Part shown: positions 6,391-9,994 of the stretch, piece by piece
How positions within the stretch are numbered: the stretch's first letter is position 1
Layout of the letters: every line of letters begins with the position of its first letter
Origin: a virus
Lineage: Duplodnaviria > Caudoviricetes
IMG/VR virus record: IMGVR_UViG_3300024967_000001
Span: 402-64,401 of that record
Strand: one strand, 5' to 3'
DNA length: 64,000 bases
Notes under the pieces: generated by a model
Seen by the model: the letters and a program-made list of their open reading frames with translations, nothing else
Database searches by the model: none
Told to the model about the DNA's origin: nothing
Program-made: the position numbers and the translations under genes

Positions 6391-7587
6391 ATGGCATTCA
6401 CCGACAAGCAGATTAAAGGACTAAAACCCAAAGCTTCACCTTATCGAATTTTTGAAAAAGGCCCGGACAAGGGTTTTGGCATCCAGGTAACGGCCAATGG
6501 CTCAGTATCGTTTTTTGTTCAGTATGCCATAAATGGGAAAAAGCGGTTTTATAACTTAGGTCGCTATCCGTCGGTGACGCTTTATGACGCAAGGATAAAA
6601 TGCCGGGGAATTAGAGCAATGATCGATAACGGTATTGATCCACAGGAACAAGTAACTCCGCACCGTTTTGGCTTGGTTAGCGACTTGTTTGACTACTATG
6701 TAAAAAAGATGCGCGACGATGGCAAGACTACGTGGGTTGATGTGCAAAATGGCCTGAATGCCAACTGCCAAGACATTATGACCATGCAGGCCAATATAAT
6801 TGAACCTATCCATATTCGGAAAATCCTGCATACAATCATCAGCAGGGGGTCGGCGGTGCAAGCTAACCGGATCAGGGCTTATTTGAACCGGGCGTTTAAA
6901 CTGGGGGTTTACCATGACAATGACCCGGCCAACTTATCTAGCCATGTGGTATTCCAGCTCACCATGAACCCGGTCGAGGCGATACCCAAGAACACGAAAG
7001 CCGAAGCCGCCGGAGAGCGCAACTTATCCTTTGGCGAGATCAAGACGTTATGGTATAGCAACGATATAGGCGAGCAGATGAGCATAGCCGCAAAGTTATT
7101 GTTGATTTACGGGTGCCGGATGATGGAGCTGTGCGGAGCCAAGAAAAACGAGTTTGATTTTGACGCGATGATTTGGACGATCCCTTGGGAGCGCGTTAAA
7201 ACCAGCAAGAAGAATAGGCGCCCTCACCTGCTGCCGATCACGCCGCTGGCAAAAACGCTACTGGATAGGCAATTGATCTATGCCTGGGACTCTGAGTATC
7301 TATTCCCTGGGCGGCATGACAATAGCAAACATATTCATCAAACCTCATTGAATCATGCCATGAGGCGTGTATCCGGGCTTGATTCTTTCGATGTGAGAGC
7401 GTTGCGTCGAACATGGAAAACCAGAACGGGCGAGGCGGGCATAGGTATTGAAGTCAGGAATCTAATTCAGAACCATAGCCGAACGGATGTCAGCTCGGTG
7501 CATTATGACAAATGGAGTTATATCGCAGAAAAAAGGGCGGCTCTTGAGCAATGGGAGGCGCATCTTATTGGAATGCTGAAGGATTAA
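6391..7587 (+). CDS. int: Tyrosine integrase, P4-like with N-terminal arm-binding domain
   Basis: FTDKQIKGLKP...LGRYP.VTL..AR arm domain; catalytic GCR, RALRRT, NH, HY. Confidence 0.95.
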   Translation: MAFTDKQIKGLKPKASPYRIFEKGPDKGFGIQVTANGSVSFFVQYAINGKKRFYNLGRYPSVTLYDARIKCRGIRAMIDNGIDPQEQVTPHRFGLVSDLFDYYVKKMRDDGKTTWVDVQNGLNANCQDIMTMQANIIEPIHIRKILHTIISRGSAVQANRIRAYLNRAFKLGVYHDNDPANLSSHVVFQLTMNPVEAIPKNTKAEAAGERNLSFGEIKTLWYSNDIGEQMSIAAKLLLIYGCRMMELCGAKKNEFDFDAMIWTIPWERVKTSKKNRRPHLLPITPLAKTLLDRQLIYAWDSEYLFPGRHDNSKHIHQTSLNHAMRRVSGLDSFDVRALRRTWKTRTGEAGIGIEVRNLIQNHSRTDVSSVHYDKWSYIAEKRAALEQWEAHLIGMLKD

Positions 7588-7666
7588 CAACCACCATCCA
7601 GCCGGATGATTTTAAACAGACGCGCGGCTTGTCCGATTGAGCGCATAGTTATACTTGGAGATAGAA

Positions 7667-7858
7667 ATGACAAAACACGAATTTTGCCGACAGATTGTAC
7701 AGACTGTTGATAATTGCAGGCGCATTGACGACATGAGCGATGAAGAGATCGCAACAGCCATTGAAGCGTTGATTTCTCCACTAACCCCCAAGGACGTGAA
7801 GAGGTTTGCGGTATGGGGCAAGCCTGAGCATCAGACAACGCCGGATAAATGCTGGTGA
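7667..7858 (+). CDS. Hypothetical cassette-like gene
   Basis: Follows GTTATAC core (7648-7654) and GGAG RBS. Confidence 0.55.
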   Translation: MTKHEFCRQIVQTVDNCRRIDDMSDEEIATAIEALISPLTPKDVKRFAVWGKPEHQTTPDKCW

Positions 7859-8073
7859 TACATAAAGCCGAATTAACGTCCGTCGGTACGAACTTTGCGG
7901 TACGGATTGACAGTAAAAAACGGAGTAGGCCAAAAACAGAACGCGGTAAAGTGTGGGTAAAATCAGCATCACATCAGTATTACGTTGGCATAGCCGAGCG
8001 TGGCATATTTGAGACAAAAGAGGAGGCTGAACGCGCTAAAACAGAAACGTGGGAAATGATCGTAAATGTATGA
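7849..8073 (+). CDS. Hypothetical protein
   Basis: Overlapping ORF. Confidence 0.5.
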   Translation: MLVIHKAELTSVGTNFAVRIDSKKRSRPKTERGKVWVKSASHQYYVGIAERGIFETKEEAERAKTETWEMIVNV

Positions 8074-8131
8074 CATAACAAACACATCTACTCGCGGCGA
8101 CGTGGCTGACGGGGTATAATGGAGGGGCAAG

Positions 8132-8317
8132 ATGAGCACCGAAGAAGTTTTTGAAGAACTAGGGATAAGCGAGAAGGAGGCTCTGGAATATCTGAATCAA
8201 TACACATTCGGCAGCAATGAGCTGACTGGGGCGGTCAGTATTGTGCGGTTCGCTGCGTGGTTTGCGTTTGAATTGTGCAAAAATAACGAAACCAAAAAGG
8301 GTGCGCCTAACGCCTAG
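8132..8317 (+). CDS. Hypothetical cassette gene
   Basis: GGAGG RBS; 3' end runs into an attC-like site. Confidence 0.6.
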   Translation: MSTEEVFEELGISEKEALEYLNQYTFGSNELTGAVSIVRFAAWFAFELCKNNETKKGAPNA

Positions 8318-8390
8318 TTAAGGCGTAGCGGCACGAACTTTAAACAACACCGCGATGCTGAACGGTGTCGCCTTGAATGACAGGCTATAT
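8305..8390 (-). other. attC-like site (one core degenerate)
   Basis: GCCTAAC-5nt-GTTAAGGCG ... CGCCTTGAAT-5nt-GCTATAT, with an extra G in the right arm. Confidence 0.7.
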
Positions 8391-8631
8391 GACACTAAAA
8401 ATACTTGATATAAATGAACATGATTTGCATCTGGTCGGGCTAGAGTTAAACGCATGTCCATTTTGCGGAAGCAAAGCGTTTGCGACAGGCAGGTTTATCG
8501 AAACATCAGAGATATACCAGTATCGAGTCGCATGTATGAATCACCATTGCGGGGCAAGTGTCGCATATAATTCTCGTGATCGAAAAGATGCAGCAGATAA
8601 CGCCATTAGAAATTGGCAAAAACGAATATAA
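8389..8631 (+). CDS. Lar-family restriction alleviation zinc-finger protein
   Basis: LNACPFCGSKA...VAC...CGAS...AIRNWQKR. Confidence 0.7.
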   Translation: MTLKILDINEHDLHLVGLELNACPFCGSKAFATGRFIETSEIYQYRVACMNHHCGASVAYNSRDRKDAADNAIRNWQKRI

Positions 8632-8681
8632 CGCCTGAATTCACCGGTCGCGCGGCGGTACGGTGGAATGAAAATTTAAAA
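8626..8681 (-). other. Short attC-like site (degenerate)
   Basis: ATATAAC-GCCTGA-ATTCACCG ... CGGTGGAAT-GAAAA-TTTAAAA, with an extra G. Confidence 0.55.
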
Positions 8682-8696
8682 CTTTTGGAGAAAATA

Positions 8697-9032
8697 ATGG
8701 ACTTTCAACGCTTGAGAAACCTGTCCACTGGACGATTGCACACCGAGATTGGCCACATCTACGAAGACCTGGAGACTATTACTGGCGAGCGCGGATTGAT
8801 GACTCACATGCTTCCGAGAGCGGTAAGAGCGGTTAAGCCGTGGCTTCGCGAGCATGTAGCAGACCCACGTTTTTGGGATGGGGAATACGACACCGCGCAC
8901 ACCGGGGAGTACACATTGCCAGAGCCTACAGCAGAAGACAGGTTGGCGATGTTTGAGCGATATAAGGCGCAACCGAACCCGCTGGAAGGTAAGGACGTGA
9001 TTGCGGTGCAGGTGATGCACCTAACGCAATAA
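8697..9032 (+). CDS. Conserved hypothetical cassette gene
   Basis: GGAG RBS; STGRL...IYE.L...TG...MTHMLPRA...KPWL. Confidence 0.7.
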   Translation: MDFQRLRNLSTGRLHTEIGHIYEDLETITGERGLMTHMLPRAVRAVKPWLREHVADPRFWDGEYDTAHTGEYTLPEPTAEDRLAMFERYKAQPNPLEGKDVIAVQVMHLTQ

Positions 9033-9107
9033 TAACGGGACGCGGTAAAGCGCCCGTAAATTTAACGATAGATTGAATCCGCGCTCCAGTTGAGCGCAGG
9101 GTTATAC
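9019..9107 (-). other. attC-like site
   Basis: ACCTAAC-GCAAT-AATAACGGGACGCGG ... CCGCGCTCCAGTTGAGC-GCAGG-GTTATAC. Confidence 0.7.
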
Positions 9108-9125
9108 GCAAGCAGGGGGTAGATT

Positions 9126-9305
9126 TTGAGATTAATAAATTACACACACAAAAGCATTGCAACGCCAGCTAGACCTAACCCAACAAAAGCAAAAAGATTT
9201 GCAAGGATCGATATGCAAAGACTTGTGGAAAATGGTTTTTCAATTGCGTGGGGGAATATGGGCAGATGGAGCGGTCTTGTTGCGATTAAAGATGATGGTG
9301 TATAA
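9126..9305 (+). CDS. 59-aa hypothetical cassette gene (TTG start, not in ORF track)
   Basis: Open frame bounded by GTTATAC (9101-9107) and its complement GTATAAC (9300-9306), which contains the stop. Confidence 0.55.
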   Translation: MRLINYTHKSIATPARPNPTKAKRFARIDMQRLVENGFSIAWGNMGRWSGLVAIKDDGV

Positions 9306-9413
9306 CGCCAAATAGCCGCCTTAATCGGTGTATAACACAACAACCACCATCCAGCCGGATGATTTTAAACAGACGCGCGGCGGTTTGGCCCGCAAAATAA
9401 TAAGTGAGAAATA

Positions 9414-9614
9414 ATGAAAAGATATTTTCTGCAATTTGATTTTTATGATGATCGTATTAATAAATATTGGTTCGGGATAGTTCAAATTGATTTATCAGAA
9501 ATCAGTTTAATTGAATATTGTCGGGAGACAATACGAAAAAGGTTCGATCCCAAAGAAGTAGACGCTGACAGTGTAACTATCAAGGTGAATGCTTTCAATA
9601 ACATTGACGCATAA
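9414..9614 (+). CDS. Hypothetical cassette-like gene
   Basis: Stop lies inside GCATAAC. Confidence 0.6.
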   Translation: MKRYFLQFDFYDDRINKYWFGIVQIDLSEISLIEYCRETIRKRFDPKEVDADSVTIKVNAFNNIDA

Positions 9615-9691
9615 CACCAAATAACCACCACTTACGCGCAGATAGCCGCAAATGCGCGTATTTTCACGACACGATTGATATGGGATAAGAA

Positions 9692-9994
9692 ATGACTAAG
9701 CAATCACTTCGAGAAACACTAGAGAAAGAATGGCTGCATGGAACAGTCTCACAATCAGGGTTACCGTGGACAGATTCATCTATTACTAATTCATCGCCTA
9801 TTGCTCAGCAAGAATTCCCGATGATAGTTCAGATTGAAAAAGAGACTGACATTAATGTGTCGCCACACCATGAATGGAAATCAGTTGAGATAGGCACAGA
9901 TGCTTTTGCAGTTACTTTTAATGCTAATGAGCTAAAAGCACTAGCAGCAGAATTTATTAAACTTGCTGATTTACTCGATAATCAAGCCAGCTAA
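9692..9994 (+). CDS. Hypothetical protein
   Basis: ORF in accessory array. Confidence 0.55.
   Translation: MTKQSLRETLEKEWLHGTVSQSGLPWTDSSITNSSPIAQQEFPMIVQIEKETDINVSPHHEWKSVEIGTDAFAVTFNANELKALAAEFIKLADLLDNQAS

Follow-up and report, generated by a model that had tools for sequence, protein, structure and literature searches.

The window analysed here is a 64,000-nucleotide stretch, bases 402-64401 of the IMG/VR virus record IMGVR_UViG_3300024967_000001, and the element in question lies at its positions 7580-9700, directly downstream of the gene for a phage integrase (int). Small plus-strand genes occupy the left arm of the window, and those in 1-5900 are tightly packed or overlapping. Downstream of int, unlike there, spacers of 50-110 nt part the genes. 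The locus raises the question of what these spacers are and how the genes between them were acquired. The most probable answer, to which a probability of about 0.8 is assigned, is that 7580-9700 is a decayed integron-type cassette array without an integron integrase (IntI), located in the accessory region that follows int in a temperate phage. Such an array is a CALIN, defined as a cluster of attC sites lacking integron integrase (PMC4889954). CALINs in phages are already published (PMC9892861), and this array appears to differ from them in polarity. It is of interest for this mirror-image polarity, for carrying an anti-restriction gene, for the fixation of cassettes that can be seen in it and for its link to integrons of the host family.

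Sites of the attC family between the small genes

Two home-made covariance models, R1 and R2, were used to search for attC sites. A degenerate R-box/L-box pattern retrieved 36 stretches from IMG/VR, and 33 of them were used for R1, which describes an R box, 5-nt spacers, an L box with a bulged G and a second bulge. R1 then found 130 further attC sites in 43 other loci, on which R2 was trained. Sequences of the window and of its sister phage L002 are absent from both models. On plasmid R100, whose attC_aadA1 site is outside the training set and has a 6-nt spacer, R1 scores the strand opposite aadA1 at 59.6 bits and the coding strand at 17.4 bits. R2 gives 93 matches in 17 of 20 array-side regions beside IntI genes of host-family genomes, and all 93 are on the strand predicted by integron geometry; no attC match at E<=0.001 is found in the IntI-adjacent regions L133, L140 and L144. 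The models are regarded as valid because of the score of R100 attC_aadA1 and this strand agreement. The strand favoured by both models is the attC bottom strand, which is the one recombined by IntI. According to excerpts of two papers, the bottom strand carries the extrahelical bases and is recombined with an approximately 1000-fold higher efficiency (PMC2095811, PMC13108822).

R2 was run on the window with filters off and on both strands. The matches, all on the plus strand, are 14338-14434 (76.2 bits, versus 34.7 bits on the minus strand), 8305-8390 (40.3 bits, E 2.7e-7), 9019-9107 (35.3 bits, E 4.3e-6), 8626-8681 (23.3 bits, E 0.003), 14029-14093 (15.6 bits, E 0.21) and 14632-14649 (15.2 bits). 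Outside the two array regions, no R2 match at E<1 is found in the 64 kb. R1 matches only 14338-14434 and 8305-8390 (22.7 bits, E 0.011). A first-pass annotation, made from the letters of the window, had named four attC-like elements in 7580-9700 and had proposed a covariance model as a check. Three of them are recovered by R2 as significant matches (E 3e-7 to 3e-3) with matching coordinates. The fourth, at about 7600-7654, had been described as a right half, and this description holds. By blastn-short, 7624-7655 is about 90% identical (88-91% over 31-34 nt) to the attC right arms in four other loci, L043, L077, L083 and L078. Neither R1 nor R2 matches 7581-7654 as a whole site, which is called a right half because only its right arm matches attC sites elsewhere.

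The design of the sites agrees with these matches. The site at 8305-8390 reads GCCTAAC-5 nt-GTTAAGGCG...CGCCTT(G)AAT-5 nt-GCTATAT, with the spacing and bulge of attC, and in the L002 orthologue of 9019-9107 the 3' arm has the bulged T and G. Five copies of the right-half motif TTGANY-N5-GTTA are present in the window against 1.13 expected, a number reached in 0 of 100 shuffles; four of the five copies, at 7637, 9090, 14076 and 14417 on the plus strand, are all within the two arrays. With three R2 matches within 800 nt and no IntI nearby, the region has the two or more sites of a CALIN. It is not a complete integron. The IntI model TIGR02249 gives no match across the whole 64.4-kb phage genome, the adjacent integrase has an arm-binding domain and no promoter signal is found.

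The array and the locus at 14029-14434 had been assigned to one site family, and this assignment is upheld, as the same subfamilies are present at both loci and also in L002 and in IntI-linked arrays of Methylobacter metagenome-assembled genomes (MAGs). The left arm at 9031 indeed complements the right arm of 14029-14093 save one G and one T, and GTTATRC-TTGGAGA...GAAATGAC is found at both 7648 and 14428. The stretches 9019-9045 and 14046-14093 are the left and right halves of one attC type, located 5 kb apart; intact sites of this type, with 13-14 nt between the halves, are seen in contigs of all four runs (X2-X5) and in L002 at 3260-3347. In one contig of run X2, the sequence returns from 14434 to 14341, a step back of 94 nt, so that this contig holds two GAACTTTAAC-type attC sites in tandem. 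This tandem is a cassette without an open reading frame (ORF).

Crossover inside the R box should leave a site whose 3' box is complementary to the 5' box of the site after it rather than to that of the same site. In 106 consecutive site pairs from all arrays, the three variable box positions match across the gene at 2.46 of 3 and within the site at 1.51 of 3, and boxes of random partners match at 1.52 +/- 0.08 of 3. The match across the gene is greater than that within the site in 65 pairs and smaller in 7 (Wilcoxon p 6e-12; n=106). The Lar-like gene of the array conforms, with 3/3 positions matched across and 0/3 within. The two pairs of cores that had been noticed earlier are also seen: GCTATAT (8384-8390) and ATATAAC (8626-8632) around the Lar-like gene are complementary at 6/7 positions, and GTTATAC (9101-9107) and GTATAAC around the 59-aa gene are exact complements, the core after this gene being that at 9300-9306. 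Genes end in or beside TAAC cores, as had been stated: the stops of int, the Lar-like gene and the 66-aa ORF are located in boxes, and the 61-aa ORF ends beside GCCTAAC. These boxes carry the signature of cassette capture by site-specific crossover. Homologous exchange does not predict it.

Homologues of one cassette gene, that for a DUF7736 protein, are found in seven other viral contigs and are attC-flanked in some of them. The gene has attC on both sides in L119, L121 and L125, only downstream in L124, and none in L120, L122 and L123. All attC matches are on the ORF strand, and the facing boxes around the gene in L119, L121 and L125 are exact complements. The flanking sites differ in type between contexts and are not conserved with the gene either upstream or downstream (pairwise identity 0.33-0.64). 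The attC site and the gene are not conserved together, and therefore the moving unit is not definable by homology. In L120 (1501-1950), a viral contig without attC, the DUF7736 homologue is followed directly by a Lar-like gene with a CPFCG motif. This pair, in reverse order to that of the window, suggests a functional link.

The spacers might instead be phage regulatory hairpins, such as terminators, promoters or RNA-processing sites, that have converged with attC. They are intergenic and located just 5' of ribosome-binding sites, and some of them (8305-8387 and 9024-9107) have a minimum free energy (MFE) z-score of about -3, as hairpins of this kind would. However, most spacers fold no better than shuffles (7581-7654, 8625-8682, 9299-9400, 9609-9690, 9990-10045 and 10259-10309), no plus-strand terminator-like site is found in any spacer of 7588-9700, promoter-like sites number 18 versus 16.9 +/- 4.1 in shuffles, and only a tRNA is found with Rfam. 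The same sequences are also located beside bacterial IntI genes, and the model that describes them scores attC_aadA1 of R100 as given above. Convergence is thus very improbable. The MFE z-score of a single spacer discriminates poorly and was not used as a criterion of membership.

Erosion of the sites and exchange between phage variants

Folding of the sites as single-stranded DNA, a check that had been proposed earlier, was carried out. The value pfold is the probability that the R-box plus L-box hairpin forms in single-stranded DNA. It is 2e-9 for 8305-8390, 3e-4 for 8626-8681 and 2e-9 for 9019-9107, so that none of the three scored array sites has a recombinogenic hairpin. At the second locus it is 1.5e-6 for 14029-14093 and 0.83 for 14338-14434. 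For comparison, it is 0.49 for R100 attC_aadA1, 0.04-0.69 for nine other phage and bacterial sites, 0.04-0.27 for the L002 sites and 0.20 for the L002 orthologue of 9019-9107. The array sites are thus predicted to be attC relics rather than working sites.

Some of the defects are visible in the boxes. The 5' boxes at 8305, 8626 and 9019 are GCCTAAC, ATATAAC and ACCTAAC, and the respective 3' boxes are GCTATAT, TTTAAAA and GTTATAC. Within their own sites, 0/3 variable positions pair at 8305-8390 and 1/3 at 8626-8681, 9019-9107 being outside the scored set. Chimeric boxes are expected inside arrays, yet the replacement of GTT by GCT in the 3' box of 8305-8390 and by TTT in the decayed 3' box of 8626-8681 are real defects.

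L002, another IMG/VR record, is the only close relative found, and its integrase is 94% identical. It is a mosaic of the window: the blocks 6162-7654, 7862-9093, 9621-9686 and 9979-10573 are shared, and unrelated genes are located between them. In the slot of the window ORF at 7667-7858, L002 has two ORFs, the first of them unrelated, which are separated by an intact attC (74.8 bits). In the slot of the 59-aa and 66-aa ORFs it has an N6-adenine-methyltransferase-like gene (TIGR01712 75.5 bits, under the cut-off of 97) and a 68-aa ORF, with an attC (42.8 bits) between the two. Its two extra cassettes are bounded by boxes divided between TAA and the final C. Run X2, which comes from a different study and a different year, includes a contig of 7581 nt that has 0 differences over 7000-9052 and then jumps to 9621; this variant is without 9053-9620, that is, without the 59-aa and 66-aa ORFs. 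A contig of run X5 joins 8068-8296 directly to 9302-9623 and skips the Lar-like, DUF7736 and 59-aa units, both ends of the join being no more than about 10 nt from the 5' boxes at 8305 and 9300. Where contigs of X3-X5 leave stretches of the window uncovered, it does not follow that these stretches are absent. The sister variants show gain and loss of cassettes, and the proximal part is fixed among the phage variants, with a variable distal slot at 9025-9625.

A different history of the same array is that IntI never acted in the phage, the block having arrived in a one-off pick-up from a bacterial array, or the repeats having spread within phages, and all variation among the variants having arisen by homologous or illegitimate recombination at the conserved spacers. 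Such a mode has been proposed for mosaic phage genomes, and the attC relics would in this case be no more than patches of homology. Several features are as this history predicts. The breakpoints at 7654 (after the 3' box), 9052 (in the centre of a site) and 9093 (in a right arm) are off the crossover point of IntI, and therefore homologous or illegitimate recombination also shapes the region. The right arm of 9019-9107 is a hybrid, a 43-nt sequence is exactly duplicated (7586-7628 and 9339-9381), the array sites are fold-dead by pfold, the non-attC spacer 9979-10045 is likewise a repeated joint in L002, and the phage encodes a Sak single-strand annealing protein (1548-2165, 8.2e-48). Against this history, boxes complement across genes and not within sites, which homologous exchange does not predict and to which the Lar-like and 59-aa genes of the array conform. 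L002 retains foldable sites, and DUF7736 homologues are located between different attC types with exactly complementary boxes. The genes are furthermore inverted relative to those of host-family arrays (41 opposite and 5 same-strand calls, as described below), and therefore capture of a bacterial array en bloc is unlikely. Homologous shuffling accounts for some joints, but not for the box signature or the inversion, and a history without any action of IntI in the phage is considered unlikely.

Other observations also weigh against a cassette array built by IntI. None of the sites of the array is predicted to be foldable, so nothing here would be mobile now. R1 alone detects one of the four named sites of 7580-9700, and the seed pattern of the models was partly inspired by the window site 14338-14434, so that the models are not fully independent of the window. 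The evidence from X5 is a single 597-nt contig with a depth of 3.8. No intact unit of attC plus gene is seen moving, as the 14338-14434 type in the window and its counterpart in L002 (1786-1882) flank unrelated ORFs on both sides. The host assignment presented below rests on MAG contigs, and a scan of bacterial genome contigs based on int gave 488 pattern matches, none of which is confirmed as a prophage relative.

An assembly artefact, in which bacterial integron DNA is misjoined into a phage contig, has to be considered, as the record comes from a metagenome assembly and attC repeats can mislead assemblers. Phage genes, however, flank the array on both sides in a contig with terminal repeats, the array recurs in the separate record of L002, and the X2 contig is identical to the window over 7000-9052. 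A chimera is excluded by these three independent assemblies.

For a decayed cassette array, the following mechanism would account for the structures. The unit would once have consisted of an attC site, a ribosome-binding site, a small ORF and the first six bases of the next 5' box. IntI of the host would have acted on folded single-stranded attC, with the crossover in the 5' box (RYYYAAC, before its final C), which often holds the stop codon of the upstream gene. All sites of the array have since lost the fold, by mutation of the 3' box, loss or swap of an arm, or overprinting, which immobilises the Lar-like gene, the DUF7736 gene and their neighbours. Some rearrangements of the distal slot may be due to recombination, homologous or illegitimate, that joins attC relics, and the Sak protein of the phage is a candidate for this annealing. 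Repeated capture followed by core mutations that fix the genes had been proposed earlier. Capture and erosion are supported; the restriction of the decay to the cores is not, since an arm is lost at 7581-7654, the right arm of 9019-9107 is a hybrid, 7858-7915 is overprinted by an ORF and 43 nt are duplicated.

The elements of the region, all on the plus strand, are as follows. The int gene (6391-7587) encodes a tyrosine recombinase with an arm-binding domain (Pfam Arm-DNA-bind_3 3.9e-17, Phage_integrase 1.2e-10), and its stop codon sits within the 5'-box-like GATTAAC at 7582-7588. The first relic (7581-7654) keeps the central part and the right arm of a GAACTTTAAC-type attC with the 3' box GTTATAC at 7648-7654, its left arm being replaced by the end of int and the 43-nt sequence 7586-7628. 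It is followed by a 63-aa cassette ORF (7667-7858) of no family and with no PHROG match. The second relic (7858-7915) has the decayed 5' box ACATAAA (7860-7866) and is overprinted by the start of a 74-aa ORF (7849-8073). It has no covariance-model match; its segment 7863-7896 is 71% identical to 8308-8341, and L002 holds GTATAAC at the same place. A contig of run X5 covers just 7870-8070 of this part, with unrelated flanks. The 74-aa ORF has no match in Pfam, NCBIfam or PHROGs and is located in a block of DNA 97.7% identical to that of L002. A 61-aa ORF without a family match in Pfam or PHROGs (8132-8317) ends beside the 5' box GCCTAAC at 8305-8311.

The third relic (8305-8390) has an intact 5' box and intact L boxes with the bulged G, and its mutated 3' box overlaps the start codon of the Lar-like gene. 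It is identical in L002 at 2546-2631, where it scores 40.6 bits. The Lar-like restriction-alleviation gene (8389-8631, alternative start 8377) has its stop inside the box ATATAAC. It matches Pfam Lar_restr_allev (1.9e-9, 38.1 bits versus a cut-off of 28.6) and phrog_599 (3.8e-8), and TIGR03655 at 32.8 bits, under the cut-off of 39.6; beyond L002, no close relative of it is found in viral contigs. The fourth relic (8626-8681) is short, has a decayed 3' box and is matched by R2 and not by R1. The DUF7736 gene (8697-9032, Pfam DUF7736 1.6e-17) runs into the fifth, hybrid relic (9019-9107), which has the 3' box GTTATAC. The left arm of this relic (9019-9045) is of the type whose right arm survives at 14046-14093, and its right arm is 83% identical to 7632-7654 of the first relic; R2 gives it 35.3 bits versus 58.1 for the L002 orthologue at 3260-3347.

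The 59-aa ORF (9126-9305) has a TTG start, belongs to no family, is placed between exactly complementary boxes and is missing from the X2 and L002 variants. The sixth relic (9300-9381) consists of two GTATAAC 5' boxes (9300-9306 and 9330-9336) around a 23-nt remnant, without a right arm, and ends with 9339-9381, the second exact copy of the 43-nt sequence; it has no covariance-model match. The 66-aa ORF (9414-9614), of no family and also missing from the X2 and L002 variants, has its stop in the box GCATAAC at 9609-9615. The spacer at 9609-9691, which forms the right border of the variable slot, contains this box, an 8-bp hairpin and, at 9619-9625, a second sequence like a box, AAATAAC; with no covariance-model match and an MFE z-score of -1.3, the spacer cannot be recognised as attC. 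The spacers 9995-10045 and 10262-10309 are not assignable to the attC family by R2 or MFE z-score. The joint at 9979-10045 (TAAxCAGCCTCAAC...GTCAAGCC) recurs between different genes in L002 (4279-4348 and 5139-5187) and has no attC-model match, and therefore the region also contains non-attC spacers. Immediately 5' of two consecutive gene starts is the 12-mer ATTTTCACGACA (9661-9672 and 10284-10295), which L002 conserves; this 12-mer is a possible regulatory motif of the phage. When 19 cassette proteins were compared with all fetched loci by tblastn, four had matches, none of them from genes of 7580-9700.

The surroundings are those of a phage. The record has 64,401 bases with direct terminal repeats and an estimated completeness of 100%, the window encodes a P22-type portal, a capsid protein and a terminase, and the 64.4-kb genome is that of a complete temperate phage. 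Megablast of 6000-15000 against the phage collection gives no match and no near relative, and L002 is the sole match of an int-based scan of viral contigs. NCBIfam gives only generic integrase matches to 6391-7587, which are weak and far under the cut-offs; this protein is a phage integrase of the P4 type, not an integron integrase. Upstream of int, a 3' fragment of tRNA-Thr(CGU) is located on the minus strand at about 6178-6226. It is bracketed by two 27-nt direct repeats, 6095-6121 and 6359-6385 (93% identical), each of which is a tandem of AAAGGCACTA-like units. These repeats are probably the arm-type Int binding sites of attP.

Orientation of the cassettes and the link to host integrons

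In a classical cassette, the ORF is carried by the top strand of attC and the attC site follows its 3' end, and insertion of the bottom strand lets the Pc promoter express the ORF, as described in part of PMC13108822. This arrangement is not found in the window. Here the genes are on the plus strand, and it is this strand that has the bottom-strand shape of attC, with an extrahelical T and G in the 3' arm; the Pfam-supported Lar-like and DUF7736 genes are among the plus-strand genes, in agreement with R2 polarity. In R100, aadA1 is located on the strand opposite to the model polarity, that is, in the reverse of the phage arrangement.

The inversion is not confined to the window. When the polarity of each interval between sites is called from its longest ORF, arrays of viral contigs give 24 same-strand and 8 opposite intervals, 40 of 72 being undecided, after removal of 12 intervals of four MAG contigs. 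The regions beside bacterial IntI genes give 5 same-strand and 41 opposite intervals, with 30 of 76 undecided. The difference between viral and bacterial calls has a Fisher p of 8e-9. The longest-ORF rule is crude and miscalls the DUF7736 interval in the window and L002, where the stop of the ORF is inside the next site. Because of these undecided and miscalled intervals, a second test was added, which relies on Pfam families at E<=1e-5 and is independent of ORF length. An orientation count on mechanical ORFs near single sites was dropped, being uninformative in GC-rich DNA.

In the viral contigs, 66 same-side ORFs yield 11 families and 55 opposite-side ORFs yield none. The same-side families are N6_N4_Mtase (4 ORFs), C5 DNA_methylase (2), Dam, MethyltransfD12, Mom, Phage_gp49_66, RNA_ligase, DUF551, RyR, Phage_integrase and UPF0020. 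In the bacterial arrays, 73 opposite-side ORFs yield 41 families and 67 same-side ORFs yield 5, namely RVT_1, GIIM (group II intron), DDE_3, Phage_pRha and HTH_3. The 20 IntI-adjacent regions serve as the bacterial control because the 20 ORFs of the first Methylobacter MAG arrays gave too few Pfam families, only RusA, UDG and an IS110 transposase. By these counts, the attC arrays of viral contigs are systematically mirror-imaged, and their recognisable cargo consists mostly of DNA-modification genes. Among the IMG/VR loci L040-L077 (for example 357-2596 of L057, and also 402-3097 of L119), many viral contigs have arrays in which every Pfam-supported gene is on the bottom-strand side and in whose cargo DNA methyltransferases and Mom predominate, and about 16 viral contigs share the GAACTTTAAC-type attC of the window, each time followed by a ribosome-binding site and ATG on the same strand. 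In a limited literature search, from which the supplement of the phage-CALIN study was excluded, no description of inverted gene polarity in phage arrays was found; neither was one of attC decay that fixes phage genes. Mirror-image polarity of phage cassettes looks new. It needs explaining, since recombination of the bottom strand sets the orientation of cassettes in integrons, and it provides a simple sequence rule that separates phage-type from bacterial cassettes in metagenomes.

The relation to bacterial integrons is seen from the site types. An 18-mer from the 5' part of 14338-14434 is present in 24 stretches of bacterial genome contigs. Whole sites of the GAACTTTAAC type occur in two Methylobacter MAGs; three small contigs, binned to other taxa, have them as well. 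To one of these MAGs belongs L083, an 8.3-kb contig that holds both an IntI gene (384 bits) and an array with sites of this type, in which the AATAACGGGACGCGG type, that of 9019-9107, is found as well. The other Methylobacter MAG, G002, encodes an intact IntI (473 bits) with an array and also contains, at 49/49 positions, the tRNA-Thr fragment that adjoins the phage int gene, an exact attB match. A relative of the phage integrase was looked for in the 1.5 kb around the tRNA-Thr matches of G001 and G002, and none is present. An IntI above the curated cut-off is encoded by 45 of the 81 sampled host-family genomes. The shared attC subfamily, the tRNA-Thr match in G002 and the IntI of the host family point to a Methylobacter-like host whose IntI would act on the phage sites, and the host of the phage is probably among methane-oxidising bacteria. 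In contig C52 of G002, three copies of the tRNA-Thr 3' end are located at 70502, 129347 and 139740, with 1, 3 and 0 mismatches to the phage fragment, which suggests islands integrated in tandem.

In the array of L083 (677-4634; IntI at 6107-7042), the cassettes near IntI are in the classical orientation, and the four at the opposite end (765-2430) agree with the phage in orientation and in attC types. The latter may be phage cassettes parked in a host integron, and the mixed orientations hint at traffic between phage and host pools. Mobile elements are found on the bottom-strand side of host-family arrays, namely an IS110-family transposase (L114, 2217-3548) and, in L128 and L132, one ORF that combines a reverse-transcriptase domain with the maturase domain of group II introns; introns of the group IIC-attC kind are already known (PMC3001079).

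A possible explanation of the inversion, offered tentatively, is a distinct pool of cassettes, each with attC, ribosome-binding site and gene on the bottom-strand side, that moves among unrelated phages by means of the IntI of the host and is stocked with counter-defence genes. If such a pool is present, the counter-defence stock would be the Lar-like gene, Dam, D12, the N4/N6 and C5 methylases and Mom. The cassettes would be silent in a bacterial integron, where they are antisense to Pc, and expressed in phage operons, and the inversion may put the bottom strand on the phage strand that is most often single-stranded. The far end of the L083 array would then hold parked phage cassettes, and 7580-9700 would be the end state, with cassettes fixed by decay.

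Relation to known systems

Phage CALINs, 17 in number and with methyltransferase cargo, are described by Qi et al. 2023 (PMC9892861), where five of six phage attC sites were recombined by IntI1. The window array resembles them, as there described, in having attC sites between small genes and no IntI; methyltransferase cargo is present here in L002 and the viral arrays. It differs from that description in consisting mostly of dead relics, in its position directly after a P4-type integrase, in the gain and loss among sister variants and in having its genes on the bottom-strand side. Bacterial integrons bank cassettes for anti-phage defence, according to an excerpt of bioRxiv 10.1101/2024.07.02.601686. 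The locus is the phage side of this banking, with cassettes, including an anti-restriction gene, that are swapped among sister variants, and its decayed sites show a mobile cassette becoming a fixed phage gene.

Sedentary chromosomal integrons in the host family have the same attC subfamilies (GAACTTTAAC and AATAACGGGACGCGG types) and the same design of boxes, spacers and bulges; attC types are taxon-specific according to PMC8352920. These integrons have an IntI and genes opposite to bottom-strand polarity (41 of 46 decidable intervals). The phage array, which is their mirror image, lacks IntI. With the class 1 cassette aadA1 and its attC_aadA1 on R100 (NC_002134.1), the phage sites have in common the R and L boxes, unpaired spacers of 5-6 nt and two extrahelical bases. 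They differ from it in their longer central parts (56-97 nt in all) and in having the genes on the strand of the model polarity.

The PeSL (promoter early stem-loop) cassettes of T4-type phages, reportedly described by Arbiol et al. in 2010, are said to consist of early promoters and stem-loops and to recombine by homology. They share with the window array the conserved structured spacers between small accessory phage genes and the modular shuffling of these genes. The spacers of the window differ from them in showing no promoter signal, in belonging to the attC family and in carrying the box signature of site-specific recombination.

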